From NCBI GenBank assembly GCA_965249245.1, contig CBDFLV010000002.1:134057-198056 (forward strand): DNA of 64,000 bases. The letters are read 5' to 3'. The translations under genes were made by a program, and so were the position numbers. How positions within the stretch are numbered: the first letter of the stretch is position 1; each line of letters begins with the position of its first letter. Positions 5,248 to 47,321 of the stretch are shown piece by piece. The DNA comes from Acidobacteriota bacterium. Its GTDB lineage: Bacteria > Acidobacteriota > UBA6911 > RPQK01 > CBDAPI01. The notes below the pieces were generated by a model. The model saw nothing but the letters and a program-made list of their open reading frames with translations, ran no database searches and was not told where the DNA came from.

Positions 5248-5832
5248 ATGCCCGAACCAGCATCTCGACTCCCCCGATCTTTCTTTGACCGCCCCACCCT
5301 GGAGGTAGCTTCCGATGTGCTGGGCAAGCGTCTGGTCAAGCTCGAGTCCGCCGGCCGGCTGTCAGGCATCATCACTGAGGTGGAAGCCTACATTGGCTCC
5401 GAGGATCAGGCCTGCCACGCCCGCTTTGGGAAGACCAGGCGAAACCGGATCATATGGGGCCCACCCGGCTTCGCCTACATCTATTTCATCTACGGTATGC
5501 ACTGGCTTCTGAACTTCGTGGTGGAGCGGGATCACTTCGCCGCGGCCGTGCTGGTGCGCTCGGTAATGGCGGTGGACGGTCTCGACACCATGCTGCAGCG
5601 ACGAAGTGGCCGCATTCGCAATCTCACCGATGGGCCTGCCAAGGTGTGCCAGGCCTTCGACTTGACTGGAGATGAGAACGGTCTCGACGTCTGTGCGCCG
5701 GAATCGACTCTGTACCTGGAAGAGGGAATCGAGGTGGACTCGGAGAGCATTGAAGCGACGCCCAGGATCGGAATCGACTCCGTTCCCGAACCCTGGAAGA
5801 GCATCCCCTGGCGTTTCAACTGTCGGGTGTGA
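5248..5832 (+). CDS. mpg: DNA-3-methyladenine glycosylase (Mpg/AAG family)
   Basis: FFDRPTLEVASDVLGKRLV...GIITEVEAYIG..DQACHARFGKTRRN...IYFIYGMHWLLN matches the PF02245 pattern. The start is taken at MPEPAS; the ORF-track start lies further upstream. Confidence 0.85.
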   Translation: MPEPASRLPRSFFDRPTLEVASDVLGKRLVKLESAGRLSGIITEVEAYIGSEDQACHARFGKTRRNRIIWGPPGFAYIYFIYGMHWLLNFVVERDHFAAAVLVRSVMAVDGLDTMLQRRSGRIRNLTDGPAKVCQAFDLTGDENGLDVCAPESTLYLEEGIEVDSESIEATPRIGIDSVPEPWKSIPWRFNCRV

Positions 5833-5835
5833 CGG

Positions 5836-5928
5836 GTTGCTGGTTGCTGGTTACTGGTTACTGGTTACTGGTTACTGGTTACTGGTTACTGGTTACTGGT
5901 TGAAAGTTGAAAGTTGAAGGTTGAAGGT
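5836..5928. repeat. Tandem heptamer array (CTGGTTA x7 then GTTGAAA/GTTGAAG units)
   Basis: ctggttgctggttactggttactggttactggttactggttactggttactggttgaaagttgaaagttgaaggttgaagg. Confidence 0.85.
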
Positions 5929-5937
5929 TCGTGGGCT

Positions 5938-6405
5938 GTGGAAGGTGGACTCCGATCACTTCGAACCGGGGGACAAACCGGTGTGGATCGGGCGGTGCTG
6001 GACGCGGCACTGGCGTCGGGCCTGGAGGTCACGGGCTGGTGCCCGAAGGGGCGAAGAGCCGAGGACGGCCCCCTGCATCACCGCTATCCTCTCGAAGAGA
6101 CACCTTCTGCAGATTACGCCCAGCGCACGGAGTGGAACGTGCGCGATTCGGATGGCACGCTGGCTCTCCTTCGCGACAAGTTGGATACCGGCACGGAACT
6201 CACCATCCGTCAGGCCAATCGGCAGTCCCGTCCGCTGCTGCTCATCGACCTGGAGGACCCCCTCGATGCCGCCACGGTCCAGGACTGGATCCGACGTTCG
6301 GGAGTTCAGCACCTGAACATAGCAGGACCGCGAGAAAGCCAGTCTCCTGGCATTTACGAAGCAGCTCGGCCTTTTCTGGAGAAGCTGTTCGTCCACCTTT
6401 TTTAG
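5938..6405 (+). CDS. SLOG-fold YpsA-like protein (family previously annotated as a putative molybdenum carrier protein)
   Basis: TGGQTGVDRAVLDAALASGLEVTGWCPKGRRAEDG matches the PF12694-type signature. The start is uncertain: the ORF-track TTG start lies inside the heptamer array, and the GTG at 5938 is preferred. Confidence 0.55.
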   Translation: MEGGLRSLRTGGQTGVDRAVLDAALASGLEVTGWCPKGRRAEDGPLHHRYPLEETPSADYAQRTEWNVRDSDGTLALLRDKLDTGTELTIRQANRQSRPLLLIDLEDPLDAATVQDWIRRSGVQHLNIAGPRESQSPGIYEAARPFLEKLFVHLF

Positions 6406-6435: not shown

Positions 6436-6618
6436 CTAGCCCGCATAATTCATAGGGTGCCGAAGCGAAGAGTCGCAAAGTCCGCGCTGGCAAGGCTTTA
6501 CGCGCGAGGGCCCCGCAGGCATAGTCGTGCACTATGCCGAGGAGCCCGAGTGGGGGTAACGCAGCCAGCGCGAGGCTTGGCGGCTCTGCAGCCGGCAGTT
6601 TATGAATTATGCGGGCTA
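6436..6618. repeat. MITE-like or structured-RNA-like repeat element, copy A (about 183 bp)
   Basis: Perfect 18-bp terminal inverted repeats TAGCCCGCATAATTCATA / TATGAATTATGCGGGCTA. The GC-rich core is about 80% identical to the second copy at 40790-40976 and contains the hairpin GGCATAGtcgtgcaCTATGCC and the inverted pair GCGCTGGC...GCCAGCGC. Confidence 0.7.
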
Positions 6619-6939
6619 GGGACCAGGCGATGTCCCGGGAAGCTGGCAGTGATTGCGAACGACTTCGGTTACAAGCGACCGGAGTCTGGCTCGAGAGGTG
6701 GGACAATGAAGAACGAAGCGAACAACGACCGAAAACTGCTCCCTTCGAAAGACTTGAGAAAGCCGCCCAGCTGGACGTTATCCAAGTCGGACCGGCGATT
6801 TCTCCACTCCTGCAACATCTCTCCCTGAGGTTACAGGTTGAAGGTTGATCGGAGACTTTCCGGGTCCCGGGGGAGGAGAGTTCAAAGTACCAGGTCCGAG
6901 ATCTCAGACCTGGACGAGAAACTTTCAACTTTTAGCGCG

Positions 6940-7698
6940 TCAAGAGGGAGTTCCCACAATCTCAATCTGGGCAATCGTGATGTTGTCCAGGCCGCCCCGG
7001 CGATTGGCTTCGGCCACCAGCTCGTTTCCGGCCTGTGCCAGGGCGTTTTCTTTGAGCAGGGTTTCGATCTCATCGTCCGCGAGTGCATCCGACAAGCCGT
7101 CGGTACAGATGAGCAACCGGTCCTCGGCAGCAACCTGCACCTCAAAGACGTCGGGGTCAATCGTTTTAGTGATTCCCAGGGAGCGTTCCAGGAGGTTCTT
7201 TTGCGGGTGCTGGCGAATCTGGTCTTTGGTCAGTTCTCCCTGCTGGTAAAGCTTGTAGACCGGGGAGTGATCGTCGGTCACCTGGGAGATCGACCCGTCG
7301 TGAAGATGGTAGATGCGGCTGTCCCCCAGGTGAAGCACCCAGATTTCACCGTGTTCCCTTGAAATCCACACGACACTGACCGTCGTTCCCATTCCTCTCA
7401 TGACGGGGTTTTCCATCTGCTCCCTGAGGATCCTCTGGTTAGCAAGTTCGAGGCACTCCCTGAGGAATTCCCGGACCGGCCCTCTGGCCTTCTCGATTTC
7501 CTCGGTGATGGTCCGAGACGCAATCGCGCTGGCCACTTCACCTGCGGCGTGGCCTCCCAGGCCATCACAGACTCCAAAGAGACCGGATTCGGGAGCATCG
7601 ATGAGTGCATCCTCGTTATTCTGACGAACCCTCCCCACATCAGTGATGGAATGGCTTCGAAACTGAAAAGGTCCGCAACGGCAGGTGGGGAGACTCAT
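6940..7698 (-). CDS. PP2C-family Ser/Thr protein phosphatase
   Basis: 252 aa with GVCDGLGGHAAGEVAS, the TDGLSD metal-binding motif and GGLDNIT. Confidence 0.85.
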   Translation of the reverse strand: MSLPTCRCGPFQFRSHSITDVGRVRQNNEDALIDAPESGLFGVCDGLGGHAAGEVASAIASRTITEEIEKARGPVREFLRECLELANQRILREQMENPVMRGMGTTVSVVWISREHGEIWVLHLGDSRIYHLHDGSISQVTDDHSPVYKLYQQGELTKDQIRQHPQKNLLERSLGITKTIDPDVFEVQVAAEDRLLICTDGLSDALADDEIETLLKENALAQAGNELVAEANRRGGLDNITIAQIEIVGTPS

Positions 7699-7965
7699 TC
7701 TTCTCTCACTCGATCACGAATGAGCTGCACTAGTCCCAAAATAAGCGTGTTTGCACATCATCTACTGTAGCGACTCGTTTTGCCAAGATCGGTTGCTCAT
7801 TTGAGGTTCAATCAGACTTGCGCCGGACTCCGGCTGTGCCGGGAAGCAGTTTGGTTGACCTCAGGCCGCCACGACGCGTTGACAATGGCCCTGAAAGTCG
7901 GTTTTCAGACAGACCCCTCCCCGATCGGCTCCATTTGTCGTCTTGTCGAAGCGGCTTGCGATTCG

Positions 7966-8535
7966 TCAGCCAAATTGCTGGTGTTTCAGCCACAGATTCC
8001 CCTCGATCAACAAACGGGTCCAATCGTTAACAGTGAGCAGTCGATACAATAAACGCCGTCCCGTTGTCACGATCTGGCAAGGCAGTCCGATCACACAGGT
8101 GACAAAGCGCCGGAACTCCATCCGGATCAGGCGTCGGGCCCCCAGTCTTGCAGGCAAAAGCAGGCCCAGCCAAACCTTGAGGTTCCAGGCTTGGGCGGCA
8201 ATCACCAGGTAAGTCCAGTTTGCGACCAGGGTATCGGCCGGCATGCGCAGAGCCTGAACGCCGTTCTTGAGCTGCTCGATCACGTTTTCCTGATTGCAGC
8301 GCCCGTTGCTTTCCAAAACCACCTGTTGTGTCGACAGTTCCTTGACCGGCACGTTCGTGACATAGAACAGATAGCGCTGCTGATCAAACAGCCGCTTTTG
8401 ACCCTTTTCGACCTCGATCCTCTTGCGCAGGATGATCATTCGGTAGGTGCCTTTAGCTCGGGCCGGTCGGTACTCGATCTCCGTCACATGCTCACTCAAC
8501 AAGTTCAGGTTTTTGTAGCCCCGCTCTCGCACCAA
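7966..8535 (-). CDS. Transposase, C-terminal fragment (DDE domain with a GxAEN..IEQLKNG-type motif)
   Basis: 189 aa containing RCNQENVIEQLKNGVQALRMP, typical of IS1380/IS4-type DDE transposases. Together with 8505..9317 it makes about 450 aa, so the gene is probably a pseudogene or carries a sequencing frameshift. Confidence 0.6.
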   Translation of the reverse strand: MVRERGYKNLNLLSEHVTEIEYRPARAKGTYRMIILRKRIEVEKGQKRLFDQQRYLFYVTNVPVKELSTQQVVLESNGRCNQENVIEQLKNGVQALRMPADTLVANWTYLVIAAQAWNLKVWLGLLLPARLGARRLIRMEFRRFVTCVIGLPCQIVTTGRRLLYRLLTVNDWTRLLIEGNLWLKHQQFG

Positions 8536-9317
8536 CGATCGAAGTTGCGGGTCAGGGAAAAGTCCGTGTCTCCCCGCAATCTCACTTGCTCAAAGCCGCC
8601 TCTTCTGACCAGTTTCACGGCTCGATCGATCCACGCCACCGCTCCTTCGTGCGACGGTCGGCTGGCCGGCCGATTGAACGTGTACAAGACCTCGTTGGTT
8701 TCGGCCAGACTCACCACCAAGGGTCCATACCCCCATTGTCCCTTGTAGTTGAGATCCATCCCTTCCTTGCAACACCCCGTGGTCTCGGCCGTCGTGCCGT
8801 CCACGTCGATCGTGGCTCGCTTGCCCATCTCCGCTGCTTGGCTTTGCCACACCTGCAGACGGCTTTCGTTGAAGGCTTCTTGCAGGGCCAAGACATCCTC
8901 TTGCTTGAAACGCCTGAGAAAGTCCCCTTCCGTACTCGGTGCCGGGATCTTGCGCGCTCCTACACTCTCCAGATAGCTGACATCCTCGCGCCGTGACTTT
9001 ACATCCTGCAGGCACACTCCCCCACTCATCACGTTGTAGATCAGATTCAAGACGTGGTCCGACTCCCGGTAGGGAAGGTGCCGCTTCAACACTCGCACAC
9101 GTTCGTCGATCCTCTCCGCCACCCTCAAGCGCTTGACCAACTGAACAATCAGCCCCAGACCTCCACTACTCACCCCTCCCATACGGCTCGAGACGTCGTA
9201 GACAATATTGCCTCCTCTCAGCACCCGTCCCCCACTCTTAGGCCGCCAACTTCGATCCAGCCTTCGCTCTATTTCCTCTTGGCGTTTGTTGATAATCTCG
9301 ATATGCTTTCTATTCAC
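8505..9317 (-). CDS. Transposase, N-terminal fragment (a frameshift separates it from 7966..8535)
   Basis: 270 aa ending RWCESGATKT. It overlaps the downstream ORF by 31 bp in another frame at an A-rich stretch (reverse complement gggctacaaaaacc). Confidence 0.6.
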   Translation of the reverse strand: MNRKHIEIINKRQEEIERRLDRSWRPKSGGRVLRGGNIVYDVSSRMGGVSSGGLGLIVQLVKRLRVAERIDERVRVLKRHLPYRESDHVLNLIYNVMSGGVCLQDVKSRREDVSYLESVGARKIPAPSTEGDFLRRFKQEDVLALQEAFNESRLQVWQSQAAEMGKRATIDVDGTTAETTGCCKEGMDLNYKGQWGYGPLVVSLAETNEVLYTFNRPASRPSHEGAVAWIDRAVKLVRRGGFEQVRLRGDTDFSLTRNFDRWCESGATKT

Positions 9318-9599
9318 CTGAAACGCCTCCTCTTGGGATTGTTCTGGGTCTTTTTCTGAACCTCAGAATACCCGTCAGGACTGGCGTTTCAGGCTTTTTT
9401 CCACCTCTGGGTATACACCCCATGTACTTATTTTGGGACTAGTGCACTGTCCGGAAAGTTCACGCCGCTACTTCGGGCGTCTTTTCGCCGACAGCTTTGT
9501 TGCGCTTCCTCGAAAGACTCCCGGCCTTCCTGCGTCGCGCGCCTCACTGTCGACGAAAATCCATCCAGAATTAACACCGCGAACTTCCCGGACAGCACA

Positions 9600-9818
9600 C
9601 TAGAACTTGTCCAGTCCCTGCATCAATTGAAGATTGCATCTCACAAAACCGTAGCCAATGATAACCAGCAGCGCCCAGGCCCCAGCTTTTTTCCAGAGCG
9701 GCTGGGTCAGCTGGTAGCCACAATAGGGGCATTTCGCCGTTCCGTCAGGCACAGTGTAGTCACAATTCCGACACACTTCCATCACCGAGTCTCTTTTCCG
9801 GAGGCGGAATGACGACAA
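9600..9818 (-). CDS. Small zinc-ribbon membrane protein (hypothetical)
   Basis: CRNCDY...CPYCGY (CxxC...CxxC) followed by a hydrophobic helix WALLVIIGYGFV. Lies immediately downstream of ligA on the same strand. Confidence 0.4.
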   Translation of the reverse strand: MSSFRLRKRDSVMEVCRNCDYTVPDGTAKCPYCGYQLTQPLWKKAGAWALLVIIGYGFVRCNLQLMQGLDKF

Positions 9819-13053: not shown

Positions 13054-13077
13054 TGGCACTCGCTGTGGCTCATGGCT

Positions 13078-13107
13078 GGTTGAAGGTTGAAAGTTGAAAG
13101 TTGGAAT
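13078..13107. repeat. Tandem heptamer array (GGTTGAA/AGTTGAA)
   Basis: ggttgaaggttgaaagttgaaagttggaat. Confidence 0.8.
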
Positions 13108-30771: not shown

Positions 30772-30773
30772 GG

Positions 30774-30829
30774 GATTGAAGATTGAAGATTGAAGATTGA
30801 AAATGATTCGCTTCGCTCATTGCGGTTCC
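30774..30829. repeat. Heptamer array (GATTGAA x4) followed by the conserved motif ATTCGCTTCGCTCATTGCGGTTCC
   Basis: gattgaagattgaagattgaagattgaaaatgattcgcttcgctcattgcggttcc. Confidence 0.8.
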
Positions 30830-38594: not shown

Positions 38595-38790
38595 TCGGGG
38601 TAGCGAGAGTGCAAACCAGCCTCTGCGCCGGGCTGAGGCTCTCAAGGACTACCTGGTGAAGGAACGAGGCATCCATCCTGGTCGGATCGAGACAGCCAGT
38701 GCCGGGGAGTCACAGCCGTTCTCGGACAACGATACAGCGGAGGGGCGCAAAGCCAATCGTCGCGGCGAGGTTGAGCTACAAGTGCGTTAG
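38593..38790 (+). pseudogene. Out-of-frame OmpA C-terminal domain remnant belonging to paralog 2
   Basis: The +1 frame encodes DDRGSESANQPLRRAEALKDYLVKERGIHPGRIETASAGESQPFSDNDTAEGRKANRRGEVELQVR. This is colinear with the tail of paralog 1 but lacks about 40 residues of the N-terminal half of the OmpA domain. Confidence 0.6.
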
Positions 38791-38807
38791 TCGCGGGGGA
38801 AGTACTA

Positions 38808-38846
38808 GAATAGAGCGGGGCCTTGGAAGGCCACGGCTCTTTTTTC
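38808..38846 (+). terminator. Putative rho-independent terminator
   Basis: GC-rich hairpin GGCCTTggAAGGCC followed by ACGGCTCTTTTTTCG, just before the next start codon. Confidence 0.35.
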
Positions 38847-38848
38847 GT

Positions 38849-40762
38849 ATGAATCGTCCAGCTCTGTGTCTGCTGATCTATTTCCTGGCGGCCCTTCCGT
38901 CCCCGCGCGCTTCCCAGCGTTTTGAGGTGCTGGGACCCTACGGAGGCGATGTCCGCTCGCTTACCGTGCACCCTCAGTCCCCGCAACGTTTCTTCCTGGG
39001 AACGGCAGACGGTCAGATTTACATCTCTCGAAACGCGGGAGATTTGTGGGAAAAACTTAGCCCTGGATTGAGCCGACGGAACCTGGTCGTCGACAACCTG
39101 GTCTTCCACCCTTCGAGCCCTGGCGTTCTCTATGCGGCGTGTTGGGAATTGAGCAGTTCCGAGGGGTTGCTCTACGTGACGCACGACGCAGGCAGTTCCT
39201 GGAAGACAGTTGATCTGGGCCGGTTTTCGAGCCGCATCCGCGCCATTTCGATTGCGCCGTCGGAACCACAGGTGCTGGCGCTGGGCATCTCCGAAGGGGT
39301 CATTTTGAGTGCAGACGAAGGCCGCTCCTGGCAACGCATCACCCGGGGGTACAAGAGCCTTCACAATGTTGAGTCCCTGGCCTTCGACCCGCTGGATTCC
39401 GAAGTTCTGTACGTAGGAACATGGCGATTGGGCTGGAAGACGATCGATCGAGGGCGAAACTGGGTTGCGATCCACAACGGGATGCATTTCGACAGCGACA
39501 TGTTTGCCCTGCTGGTCAATCCCTCCAGTCCGGACGTGCTTTATGCGAGTGCGTGCACCGGGGTCTATCGGTCTCTCAACGGTGGAGCTCAGTGGGTAAA
39601 GCTCAGTAACGGTCTTCCCAAAGAAGCCAGGCGAACTCGATCGCTACATTTTGATCCAACCGACCCTCGAGTGGTATTCGCCGGTACAACCGTAGGCCTT
39701 TTCAGGTCCACTGATGGAGGCAACTCATGGGAACAACTGCTGAAAGGGGAGGTGATCAACGCGGTCTCCATTCATCCCGCCGACTCCAATGTGATTCTGG
39801 CGGCCGCCGATGATGTTGGTATTCTCCGCAGTCGAGACGGGGGCGTTTCCTTTGAATCCGCCAATCAGGGCTTTGTGCATCGCCAGATTCAGGCCCTGGC
39901 ATCCCATCCTGGCAACCCTGACACGCTCTTCGCGGCGGTGGCTTCCGATCGGGCCCACGGTGGATTCTTTCGCACCCGCGATTCCGGAAGGGCCTGGGAA
40001 CGTGCCAATGAGGGCTTGGATGGAGATCATCCCGTCCGCGGAGTGCGCCAGATTCTACCCTCGCCCGAGGGGGACGAAGTCCTCCTGGTTCTCCGGGACC
40101 AGATCCGGCGTCTGACCCCGGATGACGGCTGGCAGACCGTATTGAAACCTGGTAAATTGACGATTCACGATGCTGCCTTCGCGGGGCTCGAAAGTGACCG
40201 GGTCGCTATCGGTACGCCCTCCGGGGTCGTTCTCCTCCACCTCGACACCGGCAAGCTTGCCCCTTCGATCATACCGGTCTACGAGGGTCCCGTCTGGGCC
40301 ATGGCCTCCGCCCCCTCTGGATCCATATTCGCCGGTGGCAACACGGGTGTATTTCGGAGTGACGACCGGGGTGGGAGTTGGATCATTAAGGTCACAGGAC
40401 TGCCCCCCGTGGCCGTGCGGCGCCTTGTTCGCTCTGCCGAGGTCCTGTTGGCGGCTACCGACCAGGGACTCTTCCTGAGCCGTGACAACGCAGAGAGCTG
40501 GTTGGCCAGGGGCCTTGCAGGAGCCGATCTGTTCACCGCGGCTGTCAGTCCTCGCGATCCTGACTGGCTCGTGGCAACCGACAAGACGGGGCTCTTTCTG
40601 TACGAGAGTTTCGACGGCGGCGGCAACTGGACCACGCATGAACCTCACCGCTCGAGTCGCATTCACCACTTGGCTTTCGCTCTGGATGGACGTCTTTGGG
40701 CGGGAAGCCTGACCGAAGGAGTGTACCTGCTTCACCCACCGTCGCTCCAGATTGAAAATTGA
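38849..40762 (+). CDS. BNR/Asp-box repeat beta-propeller protein (Ycf48-like/sialidase-like), secreted
   Basis: Signal peptide MNRPALCLLIYFLAALPSP and multiple S.DGG.SW-type motifs (SxDxGxxW): THDAGSSW, SADEGRSW, SLNGGAQW, STDGGNSW, TRDSGRAW, SDDRGGSW, SFDGGGNW. The ORF-track start at 38699 is an upstream read-through. Confidence 0.7.
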   Translation: MNRPALCLLIYFLAALPSPRASQRFEVLGPYGGDVRSLTVHPQSPQRFFLGTADGQIYISRNAGDLWEKLSPGLSRRNLVVDNLVFHPSSPGVLYAACWELSSSEGLLYVTHDAGSSWKTVDLGRFSSRIRAISIAPSEPQVLALGISEGVILSADEGRSWQRITRGYKSLHNVESLAFDPLDSEVLYVGTWRLGWKTIDRGRNWVAIHNGMHFDSDMFALLVNPSSPDVLYASACTGVYRSLNGGAQWVKLSNGLPKEARRTRSLHFDPTDPRVVFAGTTVGLFRSTDGGNSWEQLLKGEVINAVSIHPADSNVILAAADDVGILRSRDGGVSFESANQGFVHRQIQALASHPGNPDTLFAAVASDRAHGGFFRTRDSGRAWERANEGLDGDHPVRGVRQILPSPEGDEVLLVLRDQIRRLTPDDGWQTVLKPGKLTIHDAAFAGLESDRVAIGTPSGVVLLHLDTGKLAPSIIPVYEGPVWAMASAPSGSIFAGGNTGVFRSDDRGGSWIIKVTGLPPVAVRRLVRSAEVLLAATDQGLFLSRDNAESWLARGLAGADLFTAAVSPRDPDWLVATDKTGLFLYESFDGGGNWTTHEPHRSSRIHHLAFALDGRLWAGSLTEGVYLLHPPSLQIEN

Positions 40763-40789
40763 AAATTATTCGCCTCGCTCATTGCGGCT
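40750..40789. repeat. Heptamer array (GATTGAA/AATTGAA) plus the conserved motif ATTCGCCTCGCTCATTGCGGCTCC
   Basis: cagattgaaaattgaaaattattcgcctcgctcattgcggctcc. The array supplies the last codons (LQIEN, stop) of the upstream gene. Confidence 0.8.
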
Positions 40790-40976
40790 CCTTAACCTGG
40801 GAAATTCATAAGTTTTCGAAGCGAAGGGCCGCAAGCGCCGCGCTGGCAAGGCTTTACCTCCGAGGGCACCGCAGGCATAGTCGTGACTCTGTCGAGGAGC
40901 CCGAGGAGGGGGAACGCAGCCAGCGCGGATGATGGGGGCGCTGCAGCCGACAACTTATGAATTTTCCGGGTTAAGG
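40790..40976. repeat. MITE-like or structured-RNA-like repeat element, copy B (about 187 bp)
   Basis: Terminal inverted repeats CCTTAACCTGGGAAATTCATAAG / CTTATGAATTTTCCGGGTTAAGG. The core is homologous to copy A (GAAGCGAAG...GCGCTGGCAAGGCTTTAC...CCGCAGGCATAGTCGTG...CGAGGAGCCCGAG...AACGCAGCCAGCGCG...CTGCAGCCG). Confidence 0.7.
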
Positions 40977-41019: not shown

Positions 41020-41052
41020 CAACTTTCAACCTTCAACTTTAAACTTTAAACC
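41020..41052. repeat. Tandem heptamer array (CAACTTT, CAACCTT, AAACTTT)
   Basis: caactttcaaccttcaactttaaactttaaacc. Confidence 0.8.
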
Positions 41053-42017
41053 TAGTGGTTGGCCGGAACGACGCGGGTCTTGGAAAGATGGTCGTGCCAG
41101 CAGAGTTGTCGCCGGTCAAAGAGAGCCCAGAGCAGTCCAACCAGGCTGGCCGTCACGGCCAAGAACGACAATACCCGTAAGACTATGTCGGAGAGCCTCG
41201 GCCTCTTCCGTTCCTCCCCCACCAATGATAACTCCGTCGCCAGCATGCCCAGCGTCTGGCCTGAGAGGTAGAGCAGGAAGGTCGAGCTGAAGAGAAAGAA
41301 CGCTCCCGCAGTCATAAGAGTCTCGCTCAACAGCATCTCCGACATCACGCCGGCTCCGGTAGCCAGGGAAGCCACCAGGACAGTGCTGCCTCCGGCCACC
41401 ACGGCCGCCAGCACATCAATCAGACCGCTCAGCATGCGGGAAAAGAGAATCTCCGGAAAGACCGTCACTTCAATTCGATCAGGCTGCTCGGGTTGAGATC
41501 TGAGTGTCAGACTCTTCTCCATCCGGGGCCGGTCCAGTCGCAATCGACCTTGACGCTTGTCAAGAGCCGCTTTTCCGCCAGTCTTCACGACAGGTCGAAT
41601 CACCGGTTTCTCGCGCGGTGCCGCCCGGCCTTCTGGTCGATACGTGAGGATCCTTTCGCCGGGGGCCGAATTGCGCCCGCTCATTCGATAAAGAAAGGCG
41701 CTCGAATCCGGAGCTGAGCCTCGATTCACACCTGATTCCCGGCTCTCAGATTCCGCCAGTGAGCGGCTTAGGGGCTCTAGGGCGGTCTCCCGGGTTGCCG
41801 GCTCTTCGGAGGGAAAGGGAGCGCTCCTGCGCTTGTGACGGTCCAGTTTCTCTAGAATCTCCTGCTTCCACTCGGAAGCCTGGTCGGCACTGTCGGATCG
41901 ACTCGAGAACTGGTAGGGGATTACCGGAGGGAAGGGGCCTCTGGTGGCGGCATCCTCGCTCCGACACTTCGGACATTGACCATTCAGAAGGGGAGTCGAA
42001 CAGCGAGCACAAACCAC
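41052..42017 (-). CDS. RDD-family membrane protein with an N-terminal zinc ribbon
   Basis: N-terminal CARC...CPKC, a long low-complexity linker, then C-terminal TM helices with the RDD motif (LWALFDRRQLCWHDHLSKTRVV). Confidence 0.65.
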   Translation of the reverse strand: MVCARCSTPLLNGQCPKCRSEDAATRGPFPPVIPYQFSSRSDSADQASEWKQEILEKLDRHKRRSAPFPSEEPATRETALEPLSRSLAESESRESGVNRGSAPDSSAFLYRMSGRNSAPGERILTYRPEGRAAPREKPVIRPVVKTGGKAALDKRQGRLRLDRPRMEKSLTLRSQPEQPDRIEVTVFPEILFSRMLSGLIDVLAAVVAGGSTVLVASLATGAGVMSEMLLSETLMTAGAFFLFSSTFLLYLSGQTLGMLATELSLVGEERKRPRLSDIVLRVLSFLAVTASLVGLLWALFDRRQLCWHDHLSKTRVVPANH

Positions 42018-42885: not shown

Positions 42886-43062
42886 ACAGAATTTTAGTAC
42901 TTTGTATGTGTTCAGCGCCTTGCCTTTGCCCGTGCCCGTGCCTTTGCCCTGCCCCCTGCCATCACTGACGACTAACGTTCCAGGCCAGAAAAATGCGAGA
43001 GGTATGACGGGCAAAGGCAAGGGCAAGACGCTAAACACATACAGAATTCTAGTACGAGCAAG
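42886..43062. promoter_or_regulatory. Long imperfect palindrome (about 30-bp arms, about 70-bp spacer) in the divergent intergenic region upstream of queC
   Basis: Left arm CAGAATTTTAGTACTTTGTATGTGTTCAGCGCCTTGCCTTTGCCC. Right arm GGGCAAAGGCAAGGGCAAGACGCTAAACACATACAGAATTCTAGTAC. Confidence 0.35.
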
Positions 43063-43098: not shown

Positions 43099-43767
43099 GT
43101 GTCCAACTCGGCGGTTTGCCTCGTGAGCGGAGGTCTAGACAGCTGTGTTACGGCGGCTATGGCGTCGCAGGAGAGGAACCGGCTCGCCTTTCTGCATGTG
43201 ACCTACGGGCAAATCACGGCTGCCCGCGAATTGCACGCATTCCACGAAATTGCCGATTTCTACAGGGTAAGGAAGAGACTGGTCGCAGACATTGGATACC
43301 TCAAAGAAATCGGCGGCTCCGCTCTCACGGACCAAAGCATTGCATTACCGGCCGGCGACCCTGACCGCGCGGAGATCCCTGTATCCTACGTGCCTTTCCG
43401 CAATGCCCATCTTCTTGTGATCGCGACCAGCTGGGCAGAAGTCCTGGGAGCCCACAGCATCTACCTCGGCGCAGTGGAGGAAGACAGCTCCGGCTATCCC
43501 GACTGCCGTCTCGAGTTCTTCCGTTGCTTCAACAAGCTCATTGATGCCGGTACGAAACCGGAAACTCAGGTGAGCATAGTGACCCCGCTGATCGCGATGA
43601 CCAAGTCACAGATCGTACTGAGAGGAGAGGCCCTGGGGGCCCCCCTCCATCTGACCTGGTCCTGCTACCGGAACAGCGAGAGAGCCTGTCGTCAGTGCGA
43701 CAGTTGCCTGCTCCGTCTGAGAGGATTTGAGCAGGCCGGGGTCAAGGATCCGATCGCGTACGCCTGA
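43099..43767 (+). CDS. queC: 7-cyano-7-deazaguanine synthase
   Basis: PP-loop CLVSGGLDS and C-terminal Zn-binding cysteines CYRNSERACRQCDSC. Confidence 0.9.
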   Translation: MSNSAVCLVSGGLDSCVTAAMASQERNRLAFLHVTYGQITAARELHAFHEIADFYRVRKRLVADIGYLKEIGGSALTDQSIALPAGDPDRAEIPVSYVPFRNAHLLVIATSWAEVLGAHSIYLGAVEEDSSGYPDCRLEFFRCFNKLIDAGTKPETQVSIVTPLIAMTKSQIVLRGEALGAPLHLTWSCYRNSERACRQCDSCLLRLRGFEQAGVKDPIAYA

Positions 43768-47118: not shown

Positions 47119-47173
47119 TGTTCCAACGTTCCAAGTTCCAAGTTCCACTTTGCGCGCTCATTGGCATTCGCGC
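47119..47173. repeat. Heptamer array (GTTCCAA x3-4) plus a TCGCTCATTG-type motif variant
   Basis: gttccaacgttccaagttccaagttccac tttgcgcgctcattggcattcgcgcc. Confidence 0.7.
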
Positions 47174-47321
47174 CTCTGTCCGCCCGGCGACGGCACAATT
47201 GAGCTCCGGGACCGGCCCACAAGCCGCCAGGAACGGCGCCAATCAAGGAAACTGCAGAGGCAGGAACGGCAGTAGCTGCGCAGCAGCGCGGAGGCCCACC
47301 AGTACCATGTACCGCTCGGCC

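Follow-up and report, generated by a model that had tools for sequence, protein, structure and literature searches.

Two short foldback elements in the 64,000-nucleotide stretch of DNA analysed here (the window), referred to below as copies A and B, are on the evidence of sequence comparison very probably members of a MITE family, and an IS1380-family transposase acting in trans is the most likely source of their mobility. The original prediction had left the choice between a MITE and a family of structured RNAs; the MITE reading has since been strengthened by further copies, by the unrelated flanks of those copies, by an empty-site polymorphism and by an autonomous IS with matching ends. The element is non-coding and 175-180 bp long, with variants of 210-240 bp, and is bounded by terminal inverted repeats (CCCGSAWAATTCATARG) of ~17-23 bp.

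Copies A and B and their family

Both copies lie where they had been predicted, and BLAST aligns A with B at 81% identity over 172-175 nt (a MAFFT alignment of the two gives 86% column identity, flanks counted in). The core words that had been listed for them match at the two copy sites alone, against a chance expectation of ~0 to 0.08. The limits first proposed, 6436-6618 and 40790-40976, could be narrowed, as the outermost 4 nt of each copy are target-site duplications and thus fall outside the element: copy A, of the A-type subfamily, occupies 6440-6615 (176 bp; + strand, the better-folding one), and copy B, of the B-type subfamily, occupies 40796-40970 (175 bp; + strand). In copy A the left terminal inverted repeat (CCCGCATAATTCATAGGGTGCCG; 6440-6462, +), part of an inverted repeat with 27-nt arms, CTAG included, that are 89% complementary (I3), is mirrored by the right one (CGGCAGTTTATGAATTATGCGGG; 6593-6615, +), and CTAG stands on either side, at 6436-6439 and 6616-6619. 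In copy B the left repeat (CCTGGGAAATTCATAAGTTTTCG; 40796-40818, +) belongs to an inverted repeat with 29-nt arms that are 90% complementary (I2), the right one (CGACAACTTATGAATTTTCCGGG; 40948-40970, +) has as its reverse complement the B-type consensus end CCCGGAAAATTCATAAGT, and the flanking tetranucleotide is TTAA at both 40792-40795 and 40971-40974.

The interior of the element is an imperfect palindrome, such that the whole element can fold back; each of the two copies is predicted to fold as a near-continuous hairpin of ~85 bp, with a dG of -125 kcal/mol for A and -114 kcal/mol for B (z -12 and -9, respectively, against dinucleotide shuffles). R1, a covariance model built from ten copies, scores copy A at 208 bits on the + strand and 75 bits on the - strand, and copy B at 204 bits. 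The terminal repeats had been thought private to each copy; instead, the ends of A and of B are each common to many other copies (the left end of A is present in ~15 of them), and the A-type end CCCGCATAATTCATAGG and the B-type end CCCGGAAAATTCATAAG are homologous to each other. Nor was the apical stem GGCATAGT/ACTATGCC replaced in copy B, as had been suggested: the same stem is there, with one G-U pair and one mismatch, and the AGTCGTGACT palindrome of copy B came about through a 1-nt deletion in the loop. The apical change is not compensatory, and the true compensatory changes are located elsewhere in the element.

The intergenic placement was confirmed, and the genes on either side of each copy are convergent. 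Copy A has a cpYpsA-family gene (5914-6405, +) on its left and a PP2C phosphatase gene (6940-7698, -) on its right; for copy B the corresponding neighbours are a Sortilin/BNR-repeat gene (38699-40762, +) and, to the right, an RDD-domain gene (41052-42017, -). No ORF is common to A and B, which are separated by a 1-nt core indel. In genome annotation these hairpins are best masked as repeats, and not called as RNA genes or ORFs. The dismissal of ORF 6457-6828 as spurious does not extend to its 3' end, which lies outside the element and is a real, conserved ORF of 40 codons (6706-6828, +; MKNEANNDRKLLPSKDLRKPPSWTLSKSDRRFLHSCNISP). This short ORF, situated between copy A and the PP2C gene and in frame with the longer ORF of which it forms the 3' part, has stayed open, with little change in length, in two sister species (L062 and L074).

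Given a model of the element, the question of whether it has further copies could be addressed directly, and R1 identifies ~30 in the fetched DNA, among them second copies on L044 and L056. One of them, copy C, lies ~3.3 kb to the left of the window start (L032 19575-19749), on contigs of the same species that were retrieved via the PP2C protein; it is 98.8% identical to copy B over 169 nt (2 differences) in differing flanks, and there are thus three copies within ~72 kb of the host genome. Another ~25 copies are found on other contigs, with flanks that are all unrelated. A metagenome scan for the exact apical pattern matched 21 contigs. Two JGI metagenomes supply 20 of these, 19 in one and a single contig in the other, and the last belongs to an ENA sediment assembly. 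A number of short-read contigs start or stop within the element, which is typical of repeats, and MITE hairpins break short-read assemblies in this lineage.

Every complete copy has either CCCGCATAATTCATAGG or CCCGGAAAATTCATAAG at both of its ends. Short copies of the A-type subfamily, defined by the former, are 94-99% identical among themselves, and those of the B-type subfamily, defined by the latter, are 85-98% identical, with ~80% identity between the two types. In addition, there are long A-type variants of 210-240 bp which carry an extra nested stem, and an L076 type with 67-72% identity to A and B; the sister-species copy at L076 13679-13853 is 72% identical. Copy A is 94-99% identical to the copies on L047, L061 and L043, each of which has other flanks, and the copy on L047, at 99% identity, occupies a different locus. 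Near-identity across differing loci, in the pair A/L047 as in the pair B/C, would by sequence be a sign of recent activity.

The two copies first seen in the 64-kb window could, taken alone, have come from a local segmental duplication, or from gene conversion, without being mobile at all. This explanation is refuted and retains practically no probability: in the alignment homology stops sharply, exactly at the element ends, the flanks are unrelated, many more copies are present elsewhere, and an empty site exists.

Two further relatives of the family were seen in passing. At L039 21432-21511 a mini element of ~80 nt, truncated by the end of the locus, has B-type ends (CCCGGAAAATTCATAAGT) and an unrelated 42-nt interior. 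At L050 2314-2521, from a sediment metagenome, a foldback of ~210 nt (R1 47 bits) shares the apical ~36 nt of the MITE on diverged arms; since the search pattern itself demanded the apex, the recovery of this locus carries no information on apex conservation.

The family appears to be narrow in distribution. The core 18-mer GCGCTGGCAAGGCTTTAC has 30 matches among 185,579 species-representative genomes, none of which extends past the 18-mer, so that all are attributable to chance; BLAST of copy B against phage and plasmid records returned nothing, and nor did pattern scans of viral contigs. For LigA, the closest relatives that carry a name come from Acidobacteriota MAGs, at ~62% identity (82-87% in the sister species), which places the host in an uncultured Acidobacteriota lineage.

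Target sites and the probable partner transposase

Most copies have CTAG as the 4 nt that immediately adjoin their inverted repeats on the outer side. As CTAG is palindromic, a duplication is in most copies indistinguishable from a CTAG that belongs to the element. Identical 4-nt flanks are found in 7 of the 16 complete copies, and three of these seven pairs are not CTAG: TTAG/TTAG (L051), CCAG/CCAG (L056) and, in copy B, TTAA/TTAA. TTAA is again palindromic; TTAG and CCAG are not, and can only be direct repeats. Flanks that match solely as an inverted repeat were found in none of the 16 complete copies. The remaining nine have flanks that differ, mostly at one or two positions, and the first 3 nt agree in 10 of the 16 (as read from the table), which makes the duplication 4 bp, possibly 3 bp.

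CTAG on both sides of the element would also suit a hairpin element that a Y1/HUH transposase moves as ssDNA, in the manner of an IS200/IS605-type PATE or of REP/RAYT-like sequences, with CTAG as the recognised target at the left and as the element's own last four bases at the right; the strand-specific hairpin signature described below fits ssDNA transposition specific to the top strand, and a Y1_Tnp gene is present in a sister genome (L075 2240-2668). However, the three non-CTAG pairs vary together on the two sides, which is the behaviour of a duplication and not of a fixed element end, and IS1380-family DDE elements have ends identical to those seen here. In addition, the terminal inverted repeats of the element are long and true, whereas IS200/IS605-type elements, with hairpins that are subterminal only, are not known to have such repeats. 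REPs likewise are not known to have a target duplication. The present element resembles REP/BIME sequences in being an intergenic palindromic repeat often found between convergent genes, and differs from the REP/BIME and RAYT systems in its terminal inverted repeats, its duplications and its 176 bp; REPs measure 20-40 bp, and the majority have a terminal GTAG or CGTC tag on one side (PMC3733652). Mobilisation by a Y1/HUH enzyme is, on this evidence, very unlikely.

An empty-site polymorphism, which had been named as a check on mobility, is found at site A. The conspecific strain L035, with flanks ~97% identical, lacks the element there and has a single CTAG in its place; the site is also empty in the sister species (L062/L063 and L074), and is filled in L031-L034 as well as in the portion covered by L036. 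Absence of the element from both L035 and the sister species makes copy A a derived insertion. L035 is not a textbook empty site, since its allele is also without GGACCAG, the 7 nt which follow the right CTAG (window 6620-6626) in all filled alleles; this difference could reflect an independent indel or an imprecise event. We also considered whether the outer stems were pre-existing palindromes in the target, such as terminators, and this was rejected: the empty site has CTAG alone, and the stems are common to other copies. MITE insertion polymorphisms of this kind could act as strain markers in uncultured Acidobacteriota.

At site B, all of the complete strain contigs that reach across the site carry the copy, with 100% identity, and two further contigs end inside it. 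The spacer has a second insertion polymorphism, in that some strains of the same species carry an IS21 (IstA/IstB) 7 nt downstream of copy B (L068-L070, ~3636 onward; window ~40982).

The IS1380 family includes ISEcp1 and ISPme1; its ends begin with CC and it duplicates 4-5 bp. An IS of this family on L079/L080, with a 464-aa transposase (P0344, in a cluster of 523 sequences), has one end, CTAG followed by CCCGGATTATTCATAAATT, which is the same as the end of the MITE copy at L076 13679-13853 over 19/19 nt plus the CTAG. L076 carries this MITE copy and an IS1380-family IS on one contig (the IS at 1-1672, with a 445-aa transposase that scores 379 bits against NF033539, for a cut-off of 180), and there the IS ends, CTAG followed by CCCGGATTATGCA, match the MITE ends, CTAG followed by CCCGGATTATTCA, at 12 of 13 positions. 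Among the relatives traced through the L076 transposase, the ISs on L077 (86% identical) and L078 (92% identical) share both ends and CTAG flanks with the L076 IS, and the P0344 IS is 66% identical; the end motif of the ISs is CTAG followed by CCCGGAWWATKCA. Throughout ~300 kb of fetched loci the 13-mer, allowing at most one mismatch, is restricted to IS ends and MITE ends, and it always comes after CTAG where the upstream sequence is readable (one IS end, at the edge of a locus, shows TAG only). The IS type with MITE-matching ends has been greatly amplified: its clusters at 90% identity contain 1,723, 523, 381 and 181 sequences.

Given that the IS1380-family elements of related contigs have identical terminal nucleotides (CCCGGATTATTCATAAATT) and the same CTAG flanks, the element is best described as a MITE, one that differs from these ISs in having no transposase gene, and an IS1380 transposase is its most likely mobiliser. 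Such a transposase would bind the MITE ends in trans, cut the MITE out or copy it, and the MITE would then be inserted through a staggered cut of 4 bp (possibly 3 bp) at CTAG. The interior of the MITE has no similarity to the IS beyond ~22 nt, so it is not a simple internal-deletion derivative. No IS with MITE-matching ends was found in the window or in the ~90 kb of host genome that was read; the matching ISs were seen on contigs of related organisms, not on those of the host, and it is from the former that we infer the link to this host.

The window does contain an IS1380-family IS, ~1.1 kb from copy A (~7734-9438, - strand), which is degenerate and has CTAG flanks. A 152-bp internal deletion splits its transposase into ORFs 7966-8535 and 8505-9317; in strains L031-L033 this IS is intact (503 aa). 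As a candidate partner the resident IS (P0001 type, ends TCCCAAAATAAG) was rejected, its ends having no significant similarity to those of the MITE: p was 0.3-0.6 in five of six comparisons, and 0.011 for one A-type end.

Two other foldbacks flanked by CTAG were observed. At window 9443-9599, abutting the end of the resident IS1380-family IS, is an unrelated foldback of 157 nt with terminal repeats TGCACTGTCCGGAAAGTTCACG and CTAG at 9439-9442 and 9600-9603; a collapsed version of 20 nt (CTAG TGTACTTTCCGGACAGTGCA CTAG) occurs in the PP2C-cpYpsA spacer of the sister species L074, and this looks like another CTAG-targeting MITE family. At L074/L075 7276-7435 (- strand), between convergent FtsJ and NifU genes, a 160-nt foldback has CTAG/CTAG flanks, terminal repeats TGTAGCTCGCCATAAGTTCTGA and a weak R1 match (40 bits), and probably represents a distant cousin family of the MITE.

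A strand-biased hairpin

Covariation in support of the hairpin, which had been suggested as a further check, was sought in a model-based alignment of 21 distinct copies, and double changes were found in 22 of 60 pairs, in an alignment that is fitted to the model and whose copies are related by descent. Paired cells amount to 94.9%, compared with 37-41% paired and 5-8 double-change pairs in slid-partner controls, and none of 500 column shuffles reached the observed values. Of the covarying pairs, 16 are in the interior, past the terminal repeats, and a requirement that the transposase meet the same site at either end does not account for them. Divergence is 17-30% at paired and 20-29% at unpaired positions; the two classes diverge equally, which indicates that pairing is kept by compensation and not by slow change, and it has been kept while the subfamilies diverged by up to ~30%. 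A test for loops better conserved than stems showed that this is not the case.

In each of the 21 distinct copies the + strand gives a more stable fold than the - strand, with a mean gain of 15 kcal/mol. Among wobbles shared by at least two copies, 11 are of the G-U type on the + strand and 2 of the A-C type (binomial p 0.02) when the structure is predicted from the + strand, with shared counts of 9 vs 4 when the union of both strands' structures is used; private (singleton) wobbles number 9 and 13, respectively. This suggests that propagating lineages are filtered for pairing on one strand and that resting copies decay neutrally.

A very stable hairpin, strong covariation, one strand that consistently folds better and an excess of G-U among the shared wobbles (11 against 2) would all fit small structured RNA genes, and the copies could accordingly be read as paralogous genes with fixed cellular functions and not as mobile DNA. 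Such a gene family, as had been proposed alongside the MITE, does not agree with what was found at the sites themselves: the element is missing from the orthologous PP2C-cpYpsA spacer in a conspecific strain and in sister species, different genomes carry copies at different loci, and the copies are in their dozens, near-identical, with unrelated flanks, target duplications and ends identical to those of an IS. Rfam 15 gave no match around copy A at E ≤ 10 (at the gathering threshold two tRNAs pass in the whole window, and no family that matches the element), and no sigma-70-like promoter or intrinsic terminator was found in scans. Furthermore, the element occurs in gene contexts of every kind; the 3' contexts, roughly 11 sense and 9 antisense from noisy ORF calls, show no clear preference for gene orientation, and unpaired positions are no better conserved than paired ones. 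RNA genes as the exclusive explanation are largely refuted, and we consider them extremely unlikely.

A hairpin that is full-length, strand-biased and covarying is, in turn, not something that a plain DDE-transposon MITE would explain. Given that pairing is kept and that the same strand is always the more stable, some single-stranded form, be it a transcript or ssDNA, probably matters for the spread or retention of the MITE. The stricter proposition, that spread or retention requires the full-length hairpin in single-stranded form on one particular strand, is one we put forward tentatively and judge to be rather unlikely. It might take either of two possible forms: mobilisation of very short elements by an IS1380-type transposase via a fold-back or ssDNA intermediate, or recruitment of a transcribed hairpin as an RNA module, for example as a 3'-end stabiliser or a processing site. 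If the hairpin is needed for transposition, this would be something new about the way in which the IS1380 family handles very short elements, and a strand-biased hairpin kept by compensation is the sole aspect of the family that is of wider interest.

Known elements and neighbouring repeats

The hairpin-forming MITEs of enterobacteria and neisseriae, namely the ERIC/IRU, YPAL and Correia/NEMIS elements, are imperfect palindromes of 100-170 bp, often in 3' or intercistronic regions, which form long RNA hairpins when transcribed, and which duplicate TA. The present family, likened to them here by description, differs in that a CTAG-like tetranucleotide is duplicated; these elements could be the best analogy for an action of the hairpin on neighbouring transcripts.

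Bacterial MITEs are broadly distributed, as a 2024 survey of 183,232 prokaryotic genomes documents (PMC11602168). In common with them the present elements are small, non-coding and mostly intergenic, with terminal inverted repeats, a target-site duplication, many copies and, presumably, a transposase acting in trans; unlike the MITEs described so far, they form a sequence family that is new within the searches made. The expectation that the element was most likely undescribed thus holds for the family, within those searches, and fails for the kind of element, MITEs as such being well known. In the open-access literature we found no description of an IS1380-derived MITE, and the family, the host phylum and the IS1380 link all appear to be undescribed within the literature searched. 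The IS1380 family has served as the prokaryotic outgroup of the eukaryotic piggyBac (PMC10813416), and the present finding documents a MITE tied to these bacterial relatives of piggyBac.

Short repeats of another kind were also noted. Tandem heptamers (of the GTTGAAA, GTTACTG and GTTCCAA types) recur in many intergenic spacers, at window 5829-5923, 13076-13103, 30772-30829, 40749-40791, 41021-41052 and 47120-47180, as well as at L032 19050-19110 and 19770-19830, and in many cases a short GC hairpin, for example GCGCGCTCATTGGCATTCGCGCC, comes after them. A heptamer unit of 43 nt directly precedes copy B and recurs at 30787-30829; the heptamers are a repeat family separate from the MITE. The longest inverted repeat in the window, at 42895-43051, has 45-nt arms that are 82% complementary and 67 nt apart; it contains short repeats of the GCCTTTGCCC type and lies upstream of ORF 43099-43767.
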